From: Myxococcales bacterium
GTDB lineage: Bacteria > Myxococcota_A > UBA9042 > JABWCM01 > BTVJ01
Reading direction: 5' to 3'
Length of the DNA stretch: 18,387 nt
NCBI GenBank assembly: GCA_045863395.1
Contig: BTVJ01000126.1
Location: 1 to 18,387 of the forward strand
Below, piece by piece: positions 466 to 18,341 of this stretch. Position 1 is the stretch's first letter, and each line of letters starts with the position of its first letter. The notes under the pieces were generated by a model that was not told the origin of the DNA, searched no databases, and was given only the letters and a program-made list of their open reading frames with translations. A program made the position numbers and the translations under genes.

Positions 466-1314
466 TCGGAGAGAGGCGCGCAGTACACGGGTGGCTCAGT
501 TACAGGCGGAGGATGGTACGACTCCGTTGGAGCTGCTGACGCCTCGGCGCTTGGACGAGGCGCGGGCAGTCCTCGGAGCAGGCACACCGACTCGGGCGTG
601 CGTCCCCACCGTCTCGGTCGGCACGCGGGTCGCCCAACCTCGAGAGTGGGCGTCTGCCGCCGCGTGCCTGAGCGATGCACTCGCACTGTGGGTGGAGCCG
701 CCCGAGAGCTTCCTGGAGGAGCGGCAGCGGAAGTAAGGGCCCGTGCAGCAATAACCTGTCCATTCGGCCGCCGCTGCATCCCCGCTGGCGGCCCGCCGAG
801 ACCTTGGAAGGACAAGGCCCTGCCTGCGGTCTCGTCGAACCCCCAGCGGGGCGCATCAGCGCCCTCGGTGGATCAGGTTATTACTGCACGGGCCCTAAGG
901 TTCTCGATCAATCGGAGGAGATGTGGGAGGGGCCCCTGCACGTGGTTCCACCGCCGACCATCCGCCGCAACCGTCGCCCGTCCCTGATCCATCGGTTCCT
1001 CGCCGACGTGGTCGCGGCTCGCCGAGCGGGTCACGAGGCAGGTCGGACGGGACTTCGGTGTCGCGACCCTGCGGCGGGTCAGCCCTTCTACCTCCTGAAT
1101 CCAGGGGGCTCGGCCACTCCCGCAGAACCCTGTGGGCCGGAGAAACAATCCGCGGCGCTGATTGAATCGGCGGACCTCGCAAGCGCGAGGTCCGTCTGGA
1201 GGCCGCTCACACGAAGCACATACCCGAGAGAGTGCGAATCAGGCGCCATGAATCGGGATTCTGGCACGCGAGACGAGGATGAAACACTGCAACGAATCCT
1301 ACCGTCGGCGACGA

Positions 1315-2915: not shown

Positions 2916-6170
<3,255 letters not shown>

Positions 6171-6174
<4 letters not shown>

Positions 6175-8840
6175 CGTCGTTGCCCCTCGATCTGAGGATC
6201 GCTCGTGGACAGGCGCGATGCGCGCCGGTCTGCGGCGATGATCAACGCCTCCATGTAGGCGAGCGCCCCGGGCCCATGGCGGGCGACCAGTCCGAGAGTG
6301 CGCTCCCGCCAGCTCCGTCCGGTGCGGCCCGACAAACCGAGAGACGCAGGCGAGAGGCTGAGCGTGAGAGGTGGCAGGGGGGCCTCGTCTGTGCCCATCA
6401 CGATCCCTGGCAGCTCGTCTCCTTCTCGCACGCCGCGAATCGGGAGCCCACGGCCGTCGTGATTGCGGTGGTCCTGGTCCTTGGGCGCAGCGTGCAAGGC
6501 CACGCGCACCTTGCCGTGGTGGCTCAGCACCAGGTAGGCGAGCAGATCGAACTGCTCGGCAGAGCAGGCGAGGATCTCCCGCTCGATCACGGACGGGGTG
6601 TCTGCGAGCGGCTTCCGCGCAGAGAGTCCGAGCGCCTCCAGCTCGTCGGCGCAGCCACCGAGCAGGGCTGAGTGTGTCGGCGCGTATCTTTCGAGGATCG
6701 CGAAGAGGGCCAGGGCGCTCGCGAGCTCGTGGCGAAAGCCCGGGCGCGCGTCACGTTTGGTCACCTCGTAGCGCCCTGACGGACGCACCCACTCGCCATT
6801 GGGGGCCTTGGCCAGGTCCGGACGGTCGGGTCGCTTCTCGCTCCGGATGATGCTCTGAAACGCCGGGTGGGACTTGCCGTAGTCATGCCACCGCGCCGCC
6901 AGCGCCAGGAGCTTCGCCAGCTCCTCTGGCAGACACGTCTCCCGCGCGATCACCGCTGCGACCTCGGCGGCTTCGGCGCCGTGCGTGGTGATCGTCTTCC
7001 ACTGCGACACGCTGAGAACCTCGGCGTCCTGGCTGTCATCTGCCAGATCCTGCGCTGGCGCTTCTGTCAGATTCTGCGTATCGGGGGCCGCCACCGGCGG
7101 TACCCGTGCAGCGGAGGTGGGTGCGAAGCCGACTCCGAGGTCGTAGCCGCCGGAGTCCGCGGCGACACATACGATTCTGCCAGGGAGCAGCGAGGCGCGG
7201 GTGGCCACCACCCACTCCCCGTCAATGAAATCCCACACCCAGGCGCTCATGGCGGAGCGGAGCCTGGGCGCCCGCTTCGTGGACGTCTCCTTGCCGCACA
7301 GCCAGTCGCGAGCGGCGAGGAATGGCACGGCGCACAGCTCGCGACGCAGGGGGCGCCGCGTCGGCGAAGGCGCCGTCTTGGGTGGCAGGTCTGCCCAGAA
7401 CACCTGCACGTCGCGCTCGTCCCCGCTGCGGATGAAGCGGCTCACGTCGAGGTCGGCGCCGGTCAGGTCGGGGGTCGTGTCGAACAGCTCTTCGAACTCG
7501 GAGCGCCGAAGCAAGTGAGACGCCGCATAGGGATAGAGCGCGTCACGGGCCGACGCGGAGAGAGATTCCTCGAAGGCGTCGAGCGCTGCCAGTCCAACGT
7601 CGGTGAGCGCCTGGAGGGCCTGCAGGGCGGCCTCGAGCTCTTCTGATGAGTAGGGGCGGCTCGCACGTTCGTCCGTGCCGCGATCCACCACCGTGACCTG
7701 GCCGCTTCCGCCGTACCGTGCGCAGCGCCCGAAGCGCTGGACCAGGCTCGGCCAGGGCGCAAGCTCAGTGATGAGGCGGGTGGCGGAGATGTCGACTCCC
7801 GCCTCCACGACCTGGGTCGCGATGATGATGCGGTCCGTGGTCTTGGAGCAGGCGGCGCGGCACAGGACGTCCTTTCGCCACCGCTCCCGCTCCGCGGGTC
7901 GGAAGCGGCTGTGCACGAGGTGCAGCTCGGTCGCGCCGGCGTCCTGGCGCAGCGCCACGTAGGTGGCAGTCGCCCGTTCGACCGTGTTGCAGATCACGAG
8001 AGTGATCCGGCCGTGATCTCCGCCGTCGTTCTCCGCGTGCTCGTGCAGGACCAGGCGGGCCAGCTCGGGTGCTTCGTCAGGCGCGATCATGGCGACGCGC
8101 AGGCTCTTGTGGGTCGTGTTCTCCGGAGTCTCGCGATCACTGGCAGACAGCATGGTCGGGGCTTGGACCCACTGGGGGTGCTGCGCTGCGCAATCTACTG
8201 TATGGAGCCAGACCGATTGAAGCGTCGCGCTCATCCACCAGCTCTTGCAGGGCCGGAGACCGCGCGCCGCATCCTCGTCGCGGTAGGCCTGAAGCTGGGC
8301 GCTCGTGGCCAGCCCGACGTCCATGAGCTGCACCTCGTCCAGCACCCACAGCGCGTCCTGGCTCAGAAGACCGAACTCCATCGGCCAGCGTGCGCGGGGA
8401 GCGGCAAACCCGCGGTTCATGGCTCGGGAGAGCAGCATGTCCTGCGTGCCGACCAGAACGGCGGCCTCCTCGGGGAACAAGTTCCACTCGCCGGCATCTG
8501 CGCCGCCCATGACGAGGTGGACGCCGACTCTGCCGCGGTGGTCGCCGGTGCCATCCCAGAGCACGCCGAGTTGGTCGAACAGAGCAGCAGCCTCATCTGC
8601 GGTCTGCTCGGCCAGAACGCGCATCGGGAGAGCCCAGACCAGCCGGCGGGGCCACTCGGAGCGTTGCTGCGCGATACGATTGTACGCCCAAGCACCCAGG
8701 ACGCCCAGCGTCTTGCCGTTCCCGGTGGGGATGCGAATCAGGCGGCTGCGGCAACCGGGCTCGCCAGCGAGCGCCCGCTGCCATGCATGCGGCGACTTCC
8801 CGCTCGTGGCGACCCGGAACCAGGAATCGAAGTCGGTCAT
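6171..8840 (-). CDS. cas3: Type I-G Cas3, N-terminal SF2 helicase with C-terminal HD nuclease, 889 aa
   Basis: Walker A PTGNGKT, DEVQ, SAT, HSRFR, ATQVVEAGVDIS, QRFGRCAR; C-terminal HDYGK...FRHELAS...SHHGK...AADRRAS. GGAGG RBS at 8851-8855 on the minus strand. Confidence 0.95.
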
Positions 8841-8873
8841 GTGGTCGTCGCCTCCGAGCGTCGCAAACGTCTA

Positions 8874-8964
8874 CCTTCGATGGGGCCGCAGGGGGGCCTG
8901 CGGAAAGTGCGTCCGGCACGGCACTCGATCGCGCTGCCGACGCTGCTTCAATTGGGGCGGAGAG
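8874..8964 (-). ncRNA. Solitary CRISPR-like mini-array (pseudo-repeat 1, 37-nt spacer, pseudo-repeat 2); candidate CreA/CreR-like regulatory crRNA
   Basis: Minus strand: CTCTCCGCCCCAATTGAAGC (8964-8945; both ends of the array repeat with the hairpin missing, terminal ATTGAAGC intact), spacer AGCGTCGGCAGCGCGATCGAGTGCCGTGCCGGACGCA (8944-8908), then CTTTCCGCAGGCCCCCCTGCGGCCCCATCGAAGG (8907-8874; 7/8 identity at the 5' end, 14/16 at the 3' end, 7-bp stem kept by compensatory changes). Confidence 0.85.
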
Positions 8965-8997
8965 CGACGACCCACGATGTCTCGGCGGCGCCACGGC

Positions 8998-9066
8998 CGC
9001 CGGTTTGGACCCCGGTGACCTGATCGTTGACACGGCGCCAGCGGGACGGGTCGCCGGTTTGGACCC
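8998..9066. repeat. Two exact 15-bp direct repeats CGCCGGTTTGGACCC, 54 bp apart, each within a predicted stem-loop
   Basis: Copies at 8998-9012 and 9052-9066; stems CGGGTC/GACCCG (9047-9067) and, on the minus strand, GGTCACCGG/CCGGCGGCC (8995-9020). Confidence 0.8.
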
Positions 9067-9084
9067 GCGCTCCCAGCTCCGGGT

Positions 9085-9113
9085 GTGATCTCACAACGGA
9101 AGAGGGATGTCAA
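9085..9113 (-). promoter_or_regulatory. Candidate sigma70-type promoter for the mini-array and cas3 operon
   Basis: Perfect TTGACA (9113-9108), 17-nt spacer, TG-n then a weak -10 GATCAC (9090-9085); overlapped by the palindrome TGTGA-TC-TCACA (9084-9095). Confidence 0.45.
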
Positions 9114-9140
9114 GCGCCTTCTTCTCACTTCCTCTGCCTT
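9114..9140 (-). other. CreT-like translation start: purine-rich SD-like stretch, GTG, then AGA AGA AGG CGC
   Basis: Minus strand reads AAGGCAGAGGAA-GTG-AGA-AGA-AGG-CGC with GTG at 9128-9126. AGA/AGG are expected to be rare codons in a high-GC genome. Confidence 0.35.
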
Positions 9141-9166
9141 CACTCTTTCGTACTGCCTACACTGAA
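9141..9166 (-). promoter_or_regulatory. Predicted Cascade binding site (TTC PAM plus partial protospacer) for the mini-array spacer
   Basis: Minus strand TTC-AGTGTAGGCAGTACGAAAGAGTG versus spacer AGCGTCGGCAGCGCGATCGAGTG: 17/23 identical, mismatches at 3, 6, 12, 13, 17 and 18. Confidence 0.75.
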
Positions 9167-9220
9167 CTTCATTTTTCGGTCCATCCGGCCGGTTGGTCAC
9201 CAGCACTGCAAGTCCCGAGA

Positions 9221-9444
9221 GGTCCCGTCCCACGTGGGGCCACCCGGAGCGCAAGACCCCAGGGGTCGTGTCCCTCGTGGGGCCACCCGGAGCGCAAGAC
9301 CCCAGGGGTCGTGTCCCTCGTGGGGCCACCCGGAGCGCAAGACCCCGGGGGTCGTGTCCCTCGTGAGGCCACCCGGAGCGCACGACCCCAGGGGTCCCGT
9401 CCCTCGTGCAGCCACCCGGAGCGCACGACCCCAGGGGTCCCGTC
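9221..9444. repeat. Tandem array of about 5.2 copies of a 43-bp unit
   Basis: Consensus GGTCGTGTCCCTCGTGGGGCCACCCGGAGCGCAAGACCCCAGG; GCCACCCGGAGCGCA recurs at 9239, 9282, 9325, 9368 and 9411. Unit junctions form the palindrome GACCCC-A-GGGGTC. Confidence 0.95.
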
Positions 9445-10264
9445 AGACGGTCTCGTCGCCGCCGCCCGGCCCCTCGGGGGCGACCTTCTTCGCCTTGCCC
9501 GCGCGGCGCGCCGCGCGGTCGTCGGACAGGTCGTCGAGGTATCCGAAGACCAGGCGCTCCAGGTTGCGGGGGAGCGCCTCGTTCACGGCGATCTCGTCTG
9601 CGAGGACCGCGCGGCAGGAGCGGAGAGTGGTCAGGGTCTTCGTGCGGATCACGAACGCGCGCTTCTGGTCCTCTGGCGAGACGGTCTCCGTCAGCGCGTT
9701 GGACCGCGCCGCCAGCAGGCTGCCCACGGCGTCCGCCGCGGTCCCGAGGCCGCTCACCCAGTCCGCCATGGTGCGGCCATCGCCCTCCCACGCCACAGGG
9801 AGCTCGGCCAGCTCCGCACCGTGAGAGGCGAGAGCCTTGCCGTAGGTCGGCGCCGCCGCGGCCTGGTCGGCGTAAGAGGCGGTCTTCAAGGTGGGGCTGA
9901 GCGCGAGGCGGGCAGTCAGGTTGTCGACGCGCGCACGCACCACCTCGGGGGTGCTCGGCGCCCTCTGAATCGCCCGCAGCAGAAGCCCGATGCAGTCAAT
10001 CCACGCGTCATGCGTCAGGTCGGCCGTCGCGAGCTCATCGGTGAACGGCCGCTTTTGAGACGTGAGCGCGTCGGGCAGCGACGCGATGTCGGCCCTGAAT
10101 GTGGCGATCCTGCCTTCGTAGACCGCGCCGGTATGGGTGGAGCGCAGCACGGCAAGCGTGCTCGCCGGGTCGATCTCCGTGGCCTTCTTCGCCGTCACCG
10201 CGTCTGCGGGCGCATACAGCGCGTTCAGCCAGAGACGGATGTCGCCTATGGATGCGTCGTTCAA
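9443..10264 (-). CDS. Uncharacterised, probably all-helical protein of 273 aa located between the two cas modules
   Basis: Long ORF with GC3-rich codons and natural composition. GGAGG at 10275-10271 lies 6 nt before TTG 10264, which I prefer to the ORF-track start at 10315. Family not confidently recognised; the D..HD...SYADQA...R pattern is loosely reminiscent of DUF6261-like proteins. Confidence 0.8.
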   Translation of the reverse strand: MNDASIGDIRLWLNALYAPADAVTAKKATEIDPASTLAVLRSTHTGAVYEGRIATFRADIASLPDALTSQKRPFTDELATADLTHDAWIDCIGLLLRAIQRAPSTPEVVRARVDNLTARLALSPTLKTASYADQAAAAPTYGKALASHGAELAELPVAWEGDGRTMADWVSGLGTAADAVGSLLAARSNALTETVSPEDQKRAFVIRTKTLTTLRSCRAVLADEIAVNEALPRNLERLVFGYLDDLSDDRAARRAGKAKKVAPEGPGGGDETV

Positions 10265-10449
10265 GGAGCACCTCCCGGGGTATTGAGTCGGAGGCGATGG
10301 TAGACGAGCAGGCAACTTGCGTCCACTGAAATGAGCGCGCGGGGACCACAGGCATCATCACAGTGGATTCCGGAGACCGACCTGGCGTACCCTTCACCTG
10401 CCTGCTCCCGTCGCCACGGGGCCCCGCCCCCAAGCTTCGAGGTGCAGCC

Positions 10450-12084
10450 ATGCTCGACGAAACCCGCCCCATCCCCGCCCGCATGCTGAACGAGTGGACC
10501 TACTGCCCGCGCCTCGCAGTGCTCGAGTGGGTGCATGGCGAGTGGGACGAGAGCGCCGACACCGTGGACGGCGCGCGGGTCCACGGCCGCGTGGACCGAC
10601 CCACGGAGCCCCTGCCGGAGCCCGACGACGAGCTGGTAGCCCGCGCCCGCTCCGTGTGGTACGAGGGCGACGGGATCACGGCGCGCATGGACGTCGTGGA
10701 GGTGGAGCGCGGTAAGGCCGCGCCCATCGACACCAAGAGGGGGTCGCCGCCAGATGAGGGAGCGTGGGAAGCAGACCGGGTCCAGGTCTGCGCCCAGGGG
10801 CTCGTGCTGCGAGCGAACGGCTGGCAGAGTACGTCCGGCTTCGTGTGGTACGCGGCCGCCAGGCGGCGAGTCGAGGTCGTCTTCGACGACGCACTCGTGA
10901 CGCAGACCCGCAGGGCAATCACGGATCTGAGGGCGGCGGCGGAGGCCGCGGAGCTTCCTCCGCCGCTGATCGACAGCCCGCGCTGCCCCCGCTGCAGCCT
11001 GGTCGGCATCTGCCTCCCGGACGAGGTGCACTGGCTGAATGCGCCAGGCCAATCGAGCGACGAGCCGCGCCAGCTCCTCGCACCACGGCCCGACGGCCTG
11101 CCGCTTCACGTGAGCGAGCAGGGAGCCACGGTCGGCACGTCACAGGGCGAGCTGATAGTCACCCGCAAGGGTGCTGAGCTGGGACGCGTCCGGCTACGGG
11201 ACACGACGCAGGTATCACTCTACGGCCAGATTCAGGTGACAACTCAGGCTCTGCGAGCTGCAATGGACCACGGCATCGCCGTATGCTGGTTTTCGTATGG
11301 AGGCTGGTTCTACGGCATGGCTCAGGGCCACCACCACAAGAACGTCGTGCTGCGCCAGGCACAGTACGGGGCCGCGGCGGATGGCACCAGGTCCCTGGCC
11401 ATCGCACGGCAGATGGTCGCGGGCAAGATCCGCAACCAGCGGACCTTGCTGCGCCGCAATCACCCTGACGTGAGCAAGGCGACCTTGCGCGAGATGGCGC
11501 GCCTCGCCGGCTCGTCTCGCCACGCCCCGGCCATGGAGACCCTGCTTGGTCTGGAGGGCGCGGCCGCGCGCCTGTACTTCCAGGCATTCGGCGGGCTGCT
11601 CAAGGGGACCCAGGTCTTCGACCTCAACGGCCGCAACCGCCGCCCACCGCGCGACCCGGTCAACGCCCTCCTCTCCTACGCCTACGCCCTGCTCGTCAAG
11701 GAGTGCCATGTCGCCGCGGCGGCCGTGGGCTTCGACCCCTACATGGGCTTCTACCACCAGCCGCGCTACGGCCGCCCGGCGCTGGCGCTCGACCTCATGG
11801 AGGAGCTCCGCCCGCTCGTCGCCGACTCGGTCGTCATCCTGGCCATCAACAACGGCGAGACGGTCAAGGGCCACTTCATCCAGCGCGCCGACGGCTGCGC
11901 CCTGACCGCCGAGGGCCGCAAGTCCTTCCTCCGTACCTGGGAGCGCCGCATGGACACGCTGGTCACGCACCCGCTCTTCGGCTACCGGGTGAGCTGGCGC
12001 CGTCTCATCGAGGTCCAGGCGCGCCTGTTGGGCCGGCACGTCATGGGCGAGACGCCCCGCTATGTCCCCATCGAGACGCGCTGA
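10450..12084 (+). CDS. cas1: Cas4-Cas1 fusion typical of type I-G, 544 aa
   Basis: Cas4 part: YCPR, MDVVE...PIDTKRG, QVCAQ, CPRCSLVGIC (four Fe-S cysteines). Cas1 part: KIRNQRTLL, LLGLEGAAARLYF, RNRRPPRDPVNALLSYAY, GFYHQ, LALDLMEELRP.VAD. Start ATG 10450 follows GAGGTG. Confidence 0.96.
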   Translation: MLDETRPIPARMLNEWTYCPRLAVLEWVHGEWDESADTVDGARVHGRVDRPTEPLPEPDDELVARARSVWYEGDGITARMDVVEVERGKAAPIDTKRGSPPDEGAWEADRVQVCAQGLVLRANGWQSTSGFVWYAAARRRVEVVFDDALVTQTRRAITDLRAAAEAAELPPPLIDSPRCPRCSLVGICLPDEVHWLNAPGQSSDEPRQLLAPRPDGLPLHVSEQGATVGTSQGELIVTRKGAELGRVRLRDTTQVSLYGQIQVTTQALRAAMDHGIAVCWFSYGGWFYGMAQGHHHKNVVLRQAQYGAAADGTRSLAIARQMVAGKIRNQRTLLRRNHPDVSKATLREMARLAGSSRHAPAMETLLGLEGAAARLYFQAFGGLLKGTQVFDLNGRNRRPPRDPVNALLSYAYALLVKECHVAAAAVGFDPYMGFYHQPRYGRPALALDLMEELRPLVADSVVILAINNGETVKGHFIQRADGCALTAEGRKSFLRTWERRMDTLVTHPLFGYRVSWRRLIEVQARLLGRHVMGETPRYVPIETR

Positions 12085-12097
12085 AGGAGGCATCACC

Positions 12098-12391
12098 GTG
12101 AACCGCACCTGTACCCTCGTCTGCTACGACGTCTCCGATCCGAAGCGCCTCCGCAAGGTCTTCCAGATCTGCCGCCGCTTCGGCGATCACCTCCAGTACA
12201 GCGTCTTCCGCGCCGAACTCAGCCCCCGCTCGCGAGCGGAGCTCATCAAGGCGCTGGACGAGGCCATCGATCACAGGCAGGATCAGGTCCTGCTTGTGGA
12301 CATCGGCCCAGCCGGCCCGTCAGCAGCAAGCAGCTTCGCAGCGGTGGGTCGCCCCTACACCCACCCGGAGCGCCACGCCGTAATCCTGTAG
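12098..12391 (+). CDS. cas2: CRISPR-associated Cas2, 97 aa
   Basis: LVCYDVSDPKRLRKVFQICRRFGDHLQYSVF motif; AGGAGG at 12085-12090 before GTG 12098. Confidence 0.96.
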   Translation: MNRTCTLVCYDVSDPKRLRKVFQICRRFGDHLQYSVFRAELSPRSRAELIKALDEAIDHRQDQVLLVDIGPAGPSAASSFAAVGRPYTHPERHAVIL

Positions 12392-12982: not shown

Positions 12983-15900
12983 CTCTCCGCGTCTCTTGGG
13001 ACGCGGCCCCATTGAAGCAGCGTGTCCAGCAACGTCGCCATGTGTCTCCTCCGGGCTCTCCGCGTCTCTTGGGACGCGGCCCCATTGAAGCAAGCCGCTC
13101 AGCTTGCGCCGGGCCCTCATCGTCGACCTCTCCGCGTCTCTTGGGACGCGGCCCCATTGAAGCGTCAGGACCTGGAAGGTGTGCCACGGCGCCCTGCCCT
13201 CTCCGCGTCTCTTGGGACGCGGCCCCATTGAAGCAGATAGTTGCCGACTCGGGCGCGCTCCCCGTCACGAGCTCTCCGCGTCTCTTGGGACGCGGCCCCA
13301 TTGAAGCAGAATCTGGCGCCCGGACACGTACACGATGCGCCCGACTCTCCGCGTCTCTTGGGACGCGGCCCCATTGAAGCGCCCCACGGGACGAGGACGA
13401 AGAGCCACTGATCTTTCTCTCCGCGTCTCTTGGGACGCGGCCCCATTGAAGCGGGGGAGATGACGCGCCGGATCTCGTCGCGCACCTGGCTCTCCGCGTC
13501 TCTTGGGACGCGGCCCCATTGAAGCGCCATAGAATTTAGGGCAGCGTAAAGCAGATTCTTTCTCTCCGCGTCTCTTGGGACGCGGCCCCATTGAAGCGTC
13601 GAGGGCGTTGTTGATGGCGTCCTCGATGCGAGTGCTCTCCGCGTCTCTTGGGACGCGGCCCCATTGAAGCTCCGGCGTCCTGTGCGGCAGATGCTCGTCC
13701 TCTCCCGCTCTCCGCGTCTCTTGGGACGCGGCCCCATTGAAGCACGACGAACAGCCATCGGTCGTGAACCACGGCGGGGACTCTCCGCGTCTCTTGGGAC
13801 GCGGCCCCATTGAAGCCCCGTCGGTCCCACGATGCGCACGCGCCCCTTCGCGCTCTCCGCGTCTCTTGGGACGCGGCCCCATTGAAGCCGATACCTGTAG
13901 CCACTGCTCTAATCGCGTACTGGAGGTCTCTCCGCGTCTCTTGGGACGCGGCCCCATTGAAGCTTCTTCGTCTGGACGCTCGACTCCGTCGCCTCCCGGA
14001 TCTCTCCGCGTCTCTTGGGACGCGGCCCCATTGAAGCCGGTCCGTCGGCCACGGCATCGACTGCCCCGCCTCCACTCTCCGCGTCTCTTGGGACGCGGCC
14101 CCATTGAAGCGGTAGGGTTTGCTCCGTTGTCGCCGTCGGAAGGGTACCTCTCCGCGTCTCTTGGGACGCGGCCCCATTGAAGCGGATCCACGCGCATTGT
14201 GCTCTCTCCCTTGTCGTGCTTGCTCTCCGCGTCTCTTGGGACGCGGCCCCATTGAAGCGCGATCCGCCAGGTCGCGTCCAACGGCCCGGTCCTCCCTCTC
14301 CGCGTCTCTTGGGACGCGGCCCCATTGAAGCGTGAAGCTCCCGCTCCGGGAGGTGGTGGACCTCGACGTCTCTCCGCGTCTCTTGGGACGCGGCCCCATT
14401 GAAGCTACGTCTACGGAAACCGCGTGGGTTCTTAGCGCCATAACTCTCCGCGTCTCTTGGGACGCGGCCCCATTGAAGCGCACCTGTAAGGTCCGCGCCT
14501 GCAAGGTCCGCACCTTCTCTCCGCGTCTCTTGGGACGCGGCCCCATTGAAGCGCCCAGTGCTTCTTGCACTCGGCCTCCAGTTGCTCCTCTCCGCGTCTC
14601 TTGGGACGCGGCCCCATTGAAGCATCGTCATCGACGACGGCTGGACCGCCTCGGCGATGCTCTCCGCGTCTCTTGGGACGCGGCCCCATTGAAGCACGGA
14701 GCCCGCGCGCGCGACCTCCTCGGCCATCGACTCTCCGCGTCTCTTGGGACGCGGCCCCATTGAAGCCTGAGGCAGCGTCGGCTCTGGCTGCGAGATCCCC
14801 ATCTCTCCGCGTCTCTTGGGACGCGGCCCCATTGAAGCGGTCGGTGGTAAGAGCGATAATGGGTCACTCATTGCTCTCCGCGTCTCTTGGGACGCGGCCC
14901 CATTGAAGCGGCGCTTCCTCTGTTCGCAGATGCTCCGGGACCTCACTCTCCGCGTCTCTTGGGACGCGGCCCCATTGAAGCGTCCAGCGCGGAATCACGT
15001 CCTTCGCGACGCCCGCTGCCTCTCCGCGTCTCTTGGGACGCGGCCCCATTGAAGCCGGTGATGGCGGCCCATGCGTCCCAGGCGGCCCGGGTCTCTCCGC
15101 GTCTCTTGGGACGCGGCCCCATTGAAGCAAGAAGAGCCGCAAGGTGCGGGCGTAGCGTCAACCGTCTCTCCGCGTCTCTTGGGACGCGGCCCCATTGAAG
15201 CAGCGATGCCCGGGCCGCCATGGCCGACTGGGCCGGCTCTCCGCGTCTCTTGGGACGCGGCCCCATTGAAGCCCCGTCGTGTAGATCAGCACCGTCCCCG
15301 CCGCGTCCACTCTCCGCGTCTCTTGGGACGCGGCCCCATTGAAGCCGCGCCTGCTCCTCCGTCTCCCCCTCCTCCGCCGTCCTCTCCGCGTCTCTTGGGA
15401 CGCGGCCCCATTGAAGCCGGTACTCCCCCCGCGCCGCCTCCACCATGCCCTCCACCTCTCCGCGTCTCTTGGGACGCGGCCCCATTGAAGCTGAAGCGCC
15501 TGCCGACGCCGCCGGAGCCGATGAAGCCTCTCCGCGTCTCTTGGGACGCGGCCCCATTGAAGCGTAGGTGCTGTTAGGAGCTTCTACCACTGGTAGCTCA
15601 GCTCTCCGCGTCTCTTGGGACGCGGCCCCATTGAAGCCCAGCGAGCACGGTCCCTTCGGCCGGGTGGACGCGGTCCCTCCGCGTCTCTTGGGACGCGGCC
15701 CCATTGAAGCGTCGTACCGCCTCGCGGATCTCGTCCTCCGAGCACTCTCCTCTCCGCGTCTCTTGGGACGCGGCCCCATTGAAGCCTGTCTGACATGCCA
15801 GTCCTCATCACCCATCATCTTCTCTCCGCGTCTCTTGGGACGCGGCCCCATTGAAGCGTGAAGCTCCTCGCTGTTGTCGATGTAGTCGCGGATCGACTCT

Positions 15901-18341
15901 CCGCGTCTCTTGGGACGCGGCCCCATTGAAGCACGAGAGCGGCATCCAGCGAGGAGAACGACAGCGTACTCTCCGCGTCTCTTGGGACGCGGCCCCATTG
16001 AAGCGTCCAGGCGCTGGAGAATGTCTGGTGCGTACTTCGTGACTCTCCGCGTCTCTTGGGACGCGGCCCCATTGAAGCGGTCGAGTCCGAGCGCGATCCC
16101 AACGAAATGCGTTCGACTCTCCGCGTCTCTTGGGACGCGGCCCCATTGAAGCATGAAGGCCGAGGGCGACGACGTGCGCCACCGCATCTCTCCGCGTCTC
16201 TTGGGACGCGGCCCCATTGAAGCCTGTCGTACCTGGGAGGTGTGATAGGGCATCCTGACTCTCCGCGTCTCTTGGGACGCGGCCCCATTGAAGCGGTCTG
16301 ACACTACCGCCTTCGGCCTGAAGCTCCATGAACTCTCCGCGTCTCTTGGGACGCGGCCCCATTGAAGCCCGGTCTCCGGTCATGCGGCAACCATAGCTCT
16401 GCCCACTCTCCGCGTCTCTTGGGACGCGGCCCCATTGAAGCATCGAAGCCGTCGCTCAGTACTATCAACCCGTAGTTCTCTCCGCGTCTCTTGGGACGCG
16501 GCCCCATTGAAGCGGGTCGGGGGCGAGCTCCGCCGCCCGGATGCGCTTCACCTCTCCGCGTCTCTTGGGACGCGGCCCCATTGAAGCAGTTGTCAGGCGA
16601 CCCGCACATGGGCCGCGCGAGGGTACTCTCCGCGTCTCTTGGGACGCGGCCCCATTGAAGCAAGGTGCGGGAGGAAGCGGCCCGGCAGATGGACGCGGCT
16701 CTCCGCGTCTCTTGGGACGCGGCCCCATTGAAGCGCTCATTCAGGAGGCGGCCGAAGCACTCCGTCGCAGCTCTCCGCGTCTCTTGGGACGCGGCCCCAT
16801 TGAAGCTACCACTTCTTGCGCGCGCTGGAGGTGAACCCCAGCTCCTCTCCGCGTCTCTTGGGACGCGGCCCCATTGAAGCTCGCGGTCCCGCCAGCTCGT
16901 CTTGTAGTCGAGGATCACTCTCCGCGTCTCTTGGGACGCGGCCCCATTGAAGCAGGTACTGGTGCACGGCGGCGTTGAGCGCTGCCACCGTCCTCTCCGC
17001 GTCTCTTGGGACGCGGCCCCATTGAAGCTGCTTGACCGTTTCCAAGGCCCCTAGCTGCCCGTCCTCTCCGCGTCTCTTGGGACGCGGCCCCATTGAAGCC
17101 GGGCCCGCTGGTGCCACCGGCGGCATAGATGCCCTCTCTCCGCGTCTCTTGGGACGCGGCCCCATTGAAGCAGCGATGCCTGGGACGCCAGGGCCGCCTG
17201 GGACGCCTCTCTCCGCGTCTCTTGGGACGCGGCCCCATTGAAGCAAACGAGTTGGGGGGGAGCAGCCAAAGGGGGTGAAGAACTCTCCGCGTCTCTTGGG
17301 ACGCGGCCCCATTGAAGCCAACTGCCGCTCGCGAACTTCACGAGGGGCGCTGGCCTCTCCGCGTCTCTTGGGACGCGGCCCCATTGAAGCGGCTGATTTA
17401 GGTGCATATGAGAAGATTCGTACAACACTCTCCGCGTCTCTTGGGACGCGGCCCCATTGAAGCCACGAACCCAAGGGGGACGGGGGCTACGTCTCCTTCG
17501 CTCTCCGCGTCTCTTGGGACGCGGCCCCATTGAAGCGCCTTCAGGCGCTCCTGGTCCGTGAGCAGATCGATGTCTCTCCGCGTCTCTTGGGACGCGGCCC
17601 CATTGAAGCCAATGACGGTTGCCGTATCGAATGTCTCGTTCTTCCATGCTCTCCGCGTCTCTTGGGACGCGGCCCCATTGAAGCGCTCAGGTTCGCTTCG
17701 TGCAGGTCAGCTCTGCACAGGCTCTCCGCGTCTCTTGGGACGCGGCCCCATTGAAGCGCGGTGTCCCTGTTCCTGACGTCGAGGACGTTCGACTCTCCGC
17801 GTCTCTTGGGGCGCGGCCCCATTGAAGCGCCCCGAAGGCCCCGTTGAACTTGCGGAAGGGAGGGACTCTCCGCGTCTCTTGGGACGCGGCCCCATTGAAG
17901 CTCTCGACGGCGAAGTCCTGTGCGATGCCGGCACCGATGACTCTCCGCGTCTCTTGGGACGCGGCCCCATTGAAGCTTGAGGCTCTGCGGGTGGAGTAGG
18001 TAGGAACGCGACCACTCTCCGCGTCTCTTGGGACGCGGCCCCATTGAAGCTCGATGCCCCACAGGACGAGTCCGGGGCCGTAACGCCTCTCCGCGTCTCT
18101 TGGGACGCGGCCCCATTGAAGCGGTGGCAACGACGGGGATGGTGATCGGGCCGATGGACCTCTCCGCGTCTCTTGGGACGCGGCCCCATTGAAGCCCAGA
18201 TGCACATGCTCATGGCTCGCTGCGGTTGGTTCTCTCCGCGTCTCTTGGGACGCGGCCCCATTGAAGCCAGATCCGCGCAGGGTTTGCGACGCTGAGGTCC
18301 ACCTTCTCTCCGCGTCTCTCGGGACGCGGCCCCATTGACAG
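12983..18341 (+). CRISPR. CRISPR array: 74 repeats of 36 bp (CTCTCCGCGTCTCTTGGGACGCGGCCCCATTGAAGC) and 73 spacers of 35-39 bp
   Basis: Counted by hand; mean period about 72.9 bp; stem CCGCGTC/GACGCGG. Orientation is plus, based on the ATTGAAGC 3' end, the leader on the left and the degenerate last repeat (18306-18341, ending ATTGACAG). Single-base variant repeats at 15675 and 17793. Confidence 0.99.

Follow-up and report, generated by a model that had tools for sequence, protein, structure and literature searches.

A candidate CreR-type mini-array upstream of cas3 in a type I-G CRISPR-Cas locus of a Myxococcales bacterium

Type I-G, formerly named I-U, is to our knowledge the least studied of the type I CRISPR-Cas subtypes. 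The binding of its crRNA is unusual, in that the 3' hairpin is occupied by a Cas5-Cas6 fusion and the 5' handle lacks a dedicated subunit. The window analysed in the present work, a stretch of 18,387 nt which represents one contig (C126) of an 8.77-Mb genome in 186 contigs, contains such a system, and the intergenic DNA in front of its cas3 gene harbors two degenerate repeats that enclose a single spacer-like segment. Does this mini-array encode a guide by which the effector complex (Cascade) is directed to the region upstream of its own genes? The original prediction for this DNA had proposed a circuit of RNA-guided repression, exerted either on the cas operon or on a toxin gene.

Our analysis favors the former. 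We assign a probability of about 0.55 to the reading that the mini-array is a CreR-type Cascade autorepressor, located in the 5' leader of the cas3-cas8g-csb1-csb2 operon. The reading draws on the anatomy of the element, its PAM, the periodic mismatches and abrupt end of its pairing, its conservation and its position. Liu et al. (bioRxiv 10.1101/2023.03.10.532045) have described CreR RNAs for systems of types I-B, I-E and V-A.

The type I-G locus and the anatomy of the mini-array

The subtype was assigned by matches to the families PF22590, PF18019, PF09617, PF01867 together with PF01930, TIGR04113 and TIGR02165. All of the signature genes, i.e., cas3, cas8g/csx17, csb1, csb2 and the cas4-cas1 fusion, are present (Table 1), and, as judged by the hits to TIGR04113, TIGR02165 and PF09617, the locus is a complete type I-G system. 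The operon, of which cas3 is the first gene, appears intact and the main array looks active, both of which were counted in favor of a regulatory reading. None of the array spacers has a full-length match in the genome; the PAM could therefore not be derived here, and TTN was taken from the literature. The host, which is uncultured, is known from metagenomes of sludge, bioreactors and aquatic habitats. At the contig start (positions 1-45 of the window), there is a run of approximately 45 G residues, probably an assembly or sequencing end artefact.

Table 1. Coordinates of the features of the locus in the window
Feature	Position	Strand	Description
csb2 (Cas5-Cas6 fusion, repeat-cleaving enzyme)	1315-2919	minus	TIGR02165, E 1.1e-47
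csb1 (Cas7 of I-G)	2916-3914	minus	PF09617, E 2.3e-39
cas8g/csx17	3907-6174	minus	TIGR04113, E 5e-187
cas3	6171-8840	minus	889 aa; helicase, Cas3 C-terminal and HD domains; ATG at 8840
GGAGG, cas3 ribosome-binding site	8855-8851	minus	10 nt before ATG
PsiR2, degenerate repeat	8907-8874	minus	CTTTCCGCAGGCCCCCCTGCGGCCCCATCGAAGG
PsiS, spacer-like guide segment	8944-8908	minus	37 nt
PsiR1, truncated repeat (compared with the 36-nt array repeat)	8964-8945	minus	CTCTCCGCCCCAATTGAAGC
Leader between target and mini-array	9126-8965	minus	TTGACA (9113-9108) without a good second hexamer
Protospacer-like target	9163-9127	minus	Positions 1-23 match 17/23; positions 24-37 match 2/14
TTC	9166-9164	minus	Fits the TTN PAM of type I-G
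Weak sigma-70-like site facing cas3	9200-9171	minus	GTGACC (9200-9195), 18 nt, AAAAAT (9176-9171); 8/12
cas4-cas1 fusion	10363-12084	plus	
cas2	12062-12391	plus	Followed by leader and main array
Main CRISPR array	12983-18341	plus	74 repeats (36-nt), 71/74 identical, last one degenerate

The mini-array lies on the strand opposite the main array and ends 33 nt before the cas3 start codon, as had been reported; every coordinate and count given in the original prediction proved correct upon re-examination. Two repeat-like sequences (PsiR1 and PsiR2) thus flank one spacer-like segment (PsiS) in the cognate cas locus, as in CreR and other regulatory mini-arrays. According to Liu et al. (bioRxiv 10.1101/2023.03.10.532045), the 5' handle of CreA and CreR is preserved in the first repeat and the 3' part in the second, and the same division is found here. 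PsiR1 retains the first 8 nt of the array repeat (CTCTCCGC) and CCCA followed by the complete 8-nt 5' handle ATTGAAGC (8/8), and lacks the 16-nt hairpin core between them. PsiR2 retains the first 8 nt of the repeat and the 3' hairpin part, comprising a 7-bp stem (CCGCAGG/CCTGCGG) and the 4-nt linker CCCC, followed by ATCGAAGG, which preserves 6/8 of the handle. PsiS does not duplicate any of the 73 spacers in the array and has no full-length match elsewhere in the genome; this and the degeneracy of both repeats set the element apart from an ordinary immune array.

The PsiR2 stem appears in the minimum-energy folds, and differs from that of the array repeat in three base pairs, each of which is compensated on both sides. 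The covariation was examined in an alignment of five repeat-like sequences: the array repeat, PsiR2 and three from a related locus on a metagenome contig (L034, see below). In this alignment, 94.3% of the 35 cells pair and both-sided change occurs in three of the seven pairs, a score which was reached by none of 500 shuffles.

In type I-G, Csb2 cuts 4 nt past a 7-bp stem, thereby generating the 8-nt 5' handle (PMC9638904). The stem and CCCC linker of PsiR2 fit this rule, and a Csb2 cut is therefore predicted between positions 8882 and 8881. PsiR1 has no hairpin for Csb2 to bind, so the end of its handle cannot come from canonical Csb2 cleavage, and this counts against the CreR-type reading.

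The same asymmetry suggests another explanation, namely control at the RNA level only, whereby the PsiR2 hairpin would be a Csb2 site in the 5' untranslated region of cas3, through which free Csb2 tunes the stability or translation of the mRNA, the DNA match being secondary. PsiR2 indeed keeps exactly what Csb2 needs, the 7-bp stem and the 4-nt linker, and the cleaved hairpin is known to keep Csb2 bound at nanomolar affinity (PMC9638904); the hairpin ends 33 nt before the ATG, and PsiR1 would not be cuttable by the canonical route. We nevertheless consider this explanation improbable, as it gives no reason for the PAM-flanked match or for the conservation of the PsiR1 handle and of the 37-nt spacing. 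Moreover, approximately 390 nt separate the mini-array of L034 from the cas3 gene downstream of it, and this interval includes a strong promoter-like site (TTGACA, 18 nt, TACACT); the mini-array need not be part of that mRNA at all. A putative pairing of the PsiR1 flank (8972-8959) with the ribosome-binding site of cas3 (8855-8843), which forms 9 + 4 bp in the minimum-energy fold, was rejected, as it is no better than chance (equalled by 175 of 2000 shuffles).

A PAM-flanked partial match upstream of cas3

Positions 1-23 of PsiS match the DNA at 9163-9141 in 17 of 23 positions, directly after the TTC. The mismatches fall at positions 3, 6, 12, 13 (a G:T wobble), 17 and 18. Beyond position 23, only 2 of the remaining 14 positions match, in agreement with the prediction that pairing stops there. 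The earlier list of mismatches had correctly included positions 6, 12 and 18 and the wobble at 13, and had omitted those at 3 and 17. Half of the mismatches (3/6) thus occupy positions 6, 12 and 18. Both the TTN PAM and the flipping out of every sixth guide base, on which the prediction had relied, are in print for type I-G (PMC9638904).

The match was scored with every sixth base ignored (17/20) against dinucleotide shuffles of PsiS over the segment 8841-10362 on both strands. None of 300 shuffles reached this score, with or without a TT flank. When the paired length was optimised for every position, which removes the post-hoc choice of 23 nt, the observed value was reached by 0 of 3000 shuffles with a TT flank and by 8 of 3000 with any flank; shuffled sequence, which had been suggested as a test, yielded no equally good TT-flanked match. 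PsiS also ranks first among 74 when compared with the 73 real spacers. In the complete 8.77-Mb genome, both strands included, position 9163 marks the only TT-flanked site with 17/20, followed by a single site at 16; three additional sites, all of them GC-rich, reach 17/20 without the TT flank. The strongest statistical argument is that this single best PAM-flanked site of the genome is found only 177 nt from the mini-array itself. The match to 9163-9141 is not due to chance.

A further match of PsiS (17/18), present on contigs C123 and C124, was rejected; it represents one duplicated GC-rich site with the flank AGC and is consistent with chance. At that place, 178 nt or more are identical between the two contigs (C123, ~15730-15900; C124, ~3150-3330), which reflects either a duplicated region or a split assembly.

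Complementarity to a PAM-flanked site that is confined to the PAM-proximal part is a property of CreR, and is observed here with one blemish, the C:A mismatch at position 3 of the seed. In the published examples considered here the seeds are uninterrupted, e.g., 15 consecutive nt in Salmonella (bioRxiv 10.1101/2023.03.10.532045). The seed mismatch, together with the wobble at 13 and the mismatch at 17, weighs against the CreR-type reading.

The target lies inside a GC trough (0.53 at 9070-9130, versus 0.70-0.79 around it), the only one upstream of cas3. A standard scan of 8700-10500 for promoters matching in at least 9/12 positions yielded no site. A relaxed scan yielded three, the best of which (8/12) is on the cas3 strand and adjoins the target, its AAAAAT hexamer ending 4 nt before the PAM. 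Sites of this quality occur at 0.25 per strand-kb in the genome, and the only TTGACA hexamer (9113-9108) sits downstream of the target. The weakness of the site and the location of the hexamer are further points against the CreR-type reading. If the 8/12 site is the promoter, Cascade would be bound where transcription starts, and the guide would be carried by the very transcript that it represses.

The leader between the target and the mini-array contains two copies of the 15-nt sequence GGGTCCAAACCGGCG on the minus strand (9066-9052 and 9012-8998), 54 nt apart. A short hairpin is possible in each, and they may represent a protein binding site or a duplication. A 48-codon frame also runs through the leader on the minus strand (9094-8948), from a GTG without a ribosome-binding site to a TGA inside the ATTGAAGC handle, with AGA as its second codon; it is probably not a gene.

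The alternative outcome of the original prediction was the silencing of a toxin, as in addiction or abortive modules of the CreTA or CrePA type, in which the guide serves as an antitoxin. Repression of a toxin promoter guided by CreA is established in type I-B (reviewed in PMC12737573). The toxin in our case would be either the 48-codon frame or a plus-strand RNA expressed from the TACACT box (9158-9163) into a set of 43-nt tandem repeats. The target is indeed located upstream of a 160-nt leader in which the 48-codon frame is open as far as the TGA of the handle, and target positions 1-6 contain TACACT, the second hexamer of a plus-strand promoter-like site (7/12). A CreTA toxin gene specifies a small RNA with a strong ribosome-binding site, a start codon and rare Arg codons, and is targeted at its promoter. 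The GTG of the frame, however, has no ribosome-binding site, a mini-gene of the CreT kind with AUG and rare codons is absent, and the leader that contains the frame is not conserved in L034; no other candidate for an adjacent toxin gene was recognised. The GC3 profile gives no indication of plus-strand coding between 9170 and 10360, where the only real gene is on the minus strand and upstream of the target, and no Rfam match of the tandem repeat rises above noise. Nothing was found to stand behind this option of the prediction, and we regard a toxin-antitoxin function as very improbable.

Conservation in related loci and comparison with known systems

Searches with Cas3 in 61 genomes, genome contigs and metagenome contigs produced 11 related loci, the Cas3 proteins of which are 42-62% identical to that of the window. 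One of them, L034 (Cas3 59% identical), contains a homologous mini-array upstream of cas3 on the same strand. It shares with the window the sequence CCCAATTGAAGC, a 37-nt spacer and the elements CTTTCCGCAG...CTGCGGCCCCAT, whereas the flanks of the two mini-arrays are unalignable and their spacers are identical in only 17 of 37 positions. The preservation of these parts at 59% Cas3 identity argues for selection on a crRNA-like RNA. For the spacer of the L034 mini-array, on the other hand, the 8-kb locus offers no convincing target; the best match is 11/20 when a TT flank is required and 13/20 when any flank is accepted. Co-variation of spacer and target, which the original prediction had called for in related loci, is thus not seen in the only homologue available. 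In the other 10 of the 11 loci, no element combining handle and hairpin was detected within up to 1 kb upstream of cas3 (169 nt in the case of L002). By sequence comparison, the structure of the mini-array is conserved but rare, and the lack of a target in L034 and of the element in the 10 other loci both speak against the CreR-type reading.

Broader pattern searches added little. The exact pattern was found among 401 genomes of the phylum only in the window and in one match, taken as chance, that lacks a hairpin and falls where a coding region ends. When one mismatch was allowed, matches in 107 class-level genomes were about as frequent as those of reversed-pattern controls, and are hence uninformative; some of them are ordinary array units. 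The PsiR2 pattern has no match in viral contigs.

The 19-nt 3' end of the array repeat occurs once in the viral contigs, in a 50-kb contig (L062; 301-319, minus strand), as an exact copy without the 5' arm of the hairpin. It is situated approximately 50 nt after a promoter-like site (TTGACC, 17 nt, TATATA), and may be a phage-borne repeat unit, although a single 19-mer match may equally be chance; the segment downstream of it has no target in the window. L034 itself carries, in addition to its mini-array, a solitary full-length repeat with hairpin and handle intact (609-644, minus strand), which is located next to a minus-strand gene of 386 aa and precedes an AT-rich stretch and a frame of 81 codons (266-511). 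The segment downstream of this repeat has no target in that locus.

Another possibility is that the element is a decaying remnant, either what is left of the final unit of an earlier second array or an incidental product of recombination, with no present function, and that its match is of no consequence. Standalone mini-arrays arise readily by recombination of repeats (Shmakov et al., PMC10120712), and such an origin would agree with the loss of the PsiR1 hairpin, the two of eight handle bases missing from PsiR2, the seed mismatch at position 3, the L034 counterpart without a target, and the 10 of 11 related loci that have no element. A remnant would not be expected, however, to keep its handle, spacer length and PsiR2 stem at 59% Cas3 identity while its flanks have become unalignable, or to have the changes in its stem compensated. 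The genome's best TT-flanked match would also have to lie only 177 nt away by accident, which we estimate at about once in 10^4 random placements or less. Finally, the region upstream of PsiR1 does not derive from the leader of the main array by copying, as their local alignment scored 21, versus a shuffle mean of 19.6. We therefore consider decay an unlikely explanation.

The CreR-type reading finds its closest parallel in the elements described by Liu et al. (bioRxiv 10.1101/2023.03.10.532045). Like CreR, the present element is a degenerate two-repeat mini-CRISPR within a cas locus, with the handle kept in its first repeat and the 3' part in its second. Upstream of the effector genes there is a PAM-flanked site with which its spacer pairs in the PAM-proximal part only, and a toxin is not evident. 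As in Salmonella, where the distance is ~140 bp, the target is well upstream of the first cas gene. Unlike the I-B, I-E and V-A examples, it belongs to a type I-G system, the effector of which has a Cas5-Cas6 fusion (Csb2) and no Cas11. In addition, its seed is interrupted at position 3, its first repeat has lost the hairpin, and its guide is inside the leader of the operon that it would repress, 33 nt before cas3, in contrast to CreR as described in the accessible part of that study; it is also known from sequence alone.

The element likewise resembles the regulatory mini-arrays of Shmakov et al. (PMC10120712), which are standalone, have degenerate repeats and carry spacers partly complementary to cas promoter regions. 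Such partial complementarity gives binding without cleavage, as was tested for the I-F1 mini-array of P. aeruginosa (PMC10120712). The typical targets in that collection are cas8 promoters, whereas here cas3 heads the operon. The CreTA system of Haloarcula hispanica (I-B) also employs a crRNA-like RNA with two degenerate repeats that leads Cascade to a promoter by partial complementarity (PMC12737573, PMC10120712); unlike the present case, its CreA silences an adjacent gene for a small toxin RNA, creT, for which no equivalent is recognisable in our locus.

Outside the type I systems, tracr-L is a natural guide which represses its own cas promoter through partial complementarity. This autorepression, of type II-A cas9 operons, is mentioned in the same survey (PMC10120712). 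It differs from the present element in being part of a class 2 system, in using a different RNA and in having no mini-array.

The novelty of the element is smaller than the original prediction had assumed. Our literature search returned no paper naming both "type I-G" and "CreR"; creA-like elements for I-U were found by hand by Liu et al. (Figure S7 of bioRxiv 10.1101/2023.03.10.532045), and mini-arrays were recorded in 4% of 235 I-G loci by Shmakov et al. (PMC10120712), where, in the accessible part of the text, they are tabulated without discussion. The broader claim of RNA-guided repression was partly borne out: the I-G subtype, the CreA/CreR anatomy, the non-random match, the mini-array of L034 and the promoter-like site at the target all support it, and what did not bear it out are the lack of co-variation in L034, the missing hairpin of PsiR1 and the seed mismatch at position 3.

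A proposed circuit of Cascade self-repression

The CreR-type reading translates into the following scheme, in which we infer transcription, processing, binding and repression from the features described above. Transcription would start from the AT-rich island at ~9165-9200 and proceed through the leader, the mini-array and cas3. Csb2 would bind the PsiR2 hairpin and cut 4 nt past it, at the predicted site, and the Cas7 subunits would cover the guide over its 37 nt, as far as the ATTGAAGC handle. As PsiR1 has no hairpin, the 5' end of the guide would have to be made without Csb2. The loaded Cascade would then read the TTC at 9166-9164, and the first four 5-nt segments of the guide would pair in 4, 5, 3 (plus one wobble) and 5 of their 5 positions. 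With the last 14 nt unpaired, a full R-loop would not form and Cas3 would not be licensed. The complex would thus sit at the start of its own transcription unit and lower cas gene expression. Repression would be lifted when Cascade is titrated away, either by abundant crRNAs from the 74-repeat array or by anti-CRISPR proteins.

A more far-reaching version, which we advance only tentatively and hold to be rather doubtful, is a feedback loop on one transcript that would be peculiar to type I-G, in which a single RNA comprises the promoter, the site bound by Cascade where transcription starts, the guide and the cas genes. In such a loop the Csb2 cut at PsiR2 would have a dual role, since it would mature the guide and at the same time, 41 nt before the ATG, detach the leader from the message of cas3. 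From the lack of a hairpin in PsiR1 it would follow that the I-G Cascade can be loaded with a guide that acquires its 5' end independently of Cas6 activity. The seed mismatch would be either tolerated or exploited to keep repression weak and easy to relieve. If true, type I-G would have its first worked-out example of autoregulation by a guide RNA, and something new would be learned about guide maturation there.

The available reads speak neither for nor against the scheme. Four of 24 sequencing runs were compared with the window. In the one metatranscriptomic RNA run among them, with coverage of only depth 2, two contigs (8506-8656 and 8746-8866) fall in the 5' part of cas3, and none covers the mini-array (8874-8964) or the target. 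The DNA runs compared are identical to the window or differ from it by one letter, and thus offer no co-variation among strains.

The mini-array of type I-G reveals no new principle; its local peculiarities are the hairpin-less first repeat, the interrupted seed and the placement of the guide 33 nt before cas3. Should the CreR-type reading be true, self-repression by Cascade would extend to type I-G, and the locus would provide a ready-made natural case of binding without cutting for the development of I-G tools. The hairpin-less first repeat would then serve to test how much canonical processing the I-G complex needs. In terms of annotation, the intergenic DNA before cas3 in I-G loci can hide a candidate functional RNA gene.

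The DNA further upstream of the target has features of its own. Between the AT-rich island and the stop codon of the upstream gene, a 43-nt unit is repeated 5.4 times head to tail (9208-9439, 92% matches). Each unit contains the palindrome GACCCCAGGGGTC, its length is not a multiple of 3, and it occurs nowhere else in the genome; a search of 8700-10500 against Rfam gave only sub-threshold microRNA noise on this repeat. The upstream gene itself, on the minus strand from 9443 to ~10264-10315, is real by its GC3 (~0.9). It has no Pfam or NCBIfam match, and searches of the related cas loci and of the rest of the genome revealed no homologue. Its product falls into protein clusters of hypotheticals that are commonest in Myxococcota, some members of which contain DUF6261.
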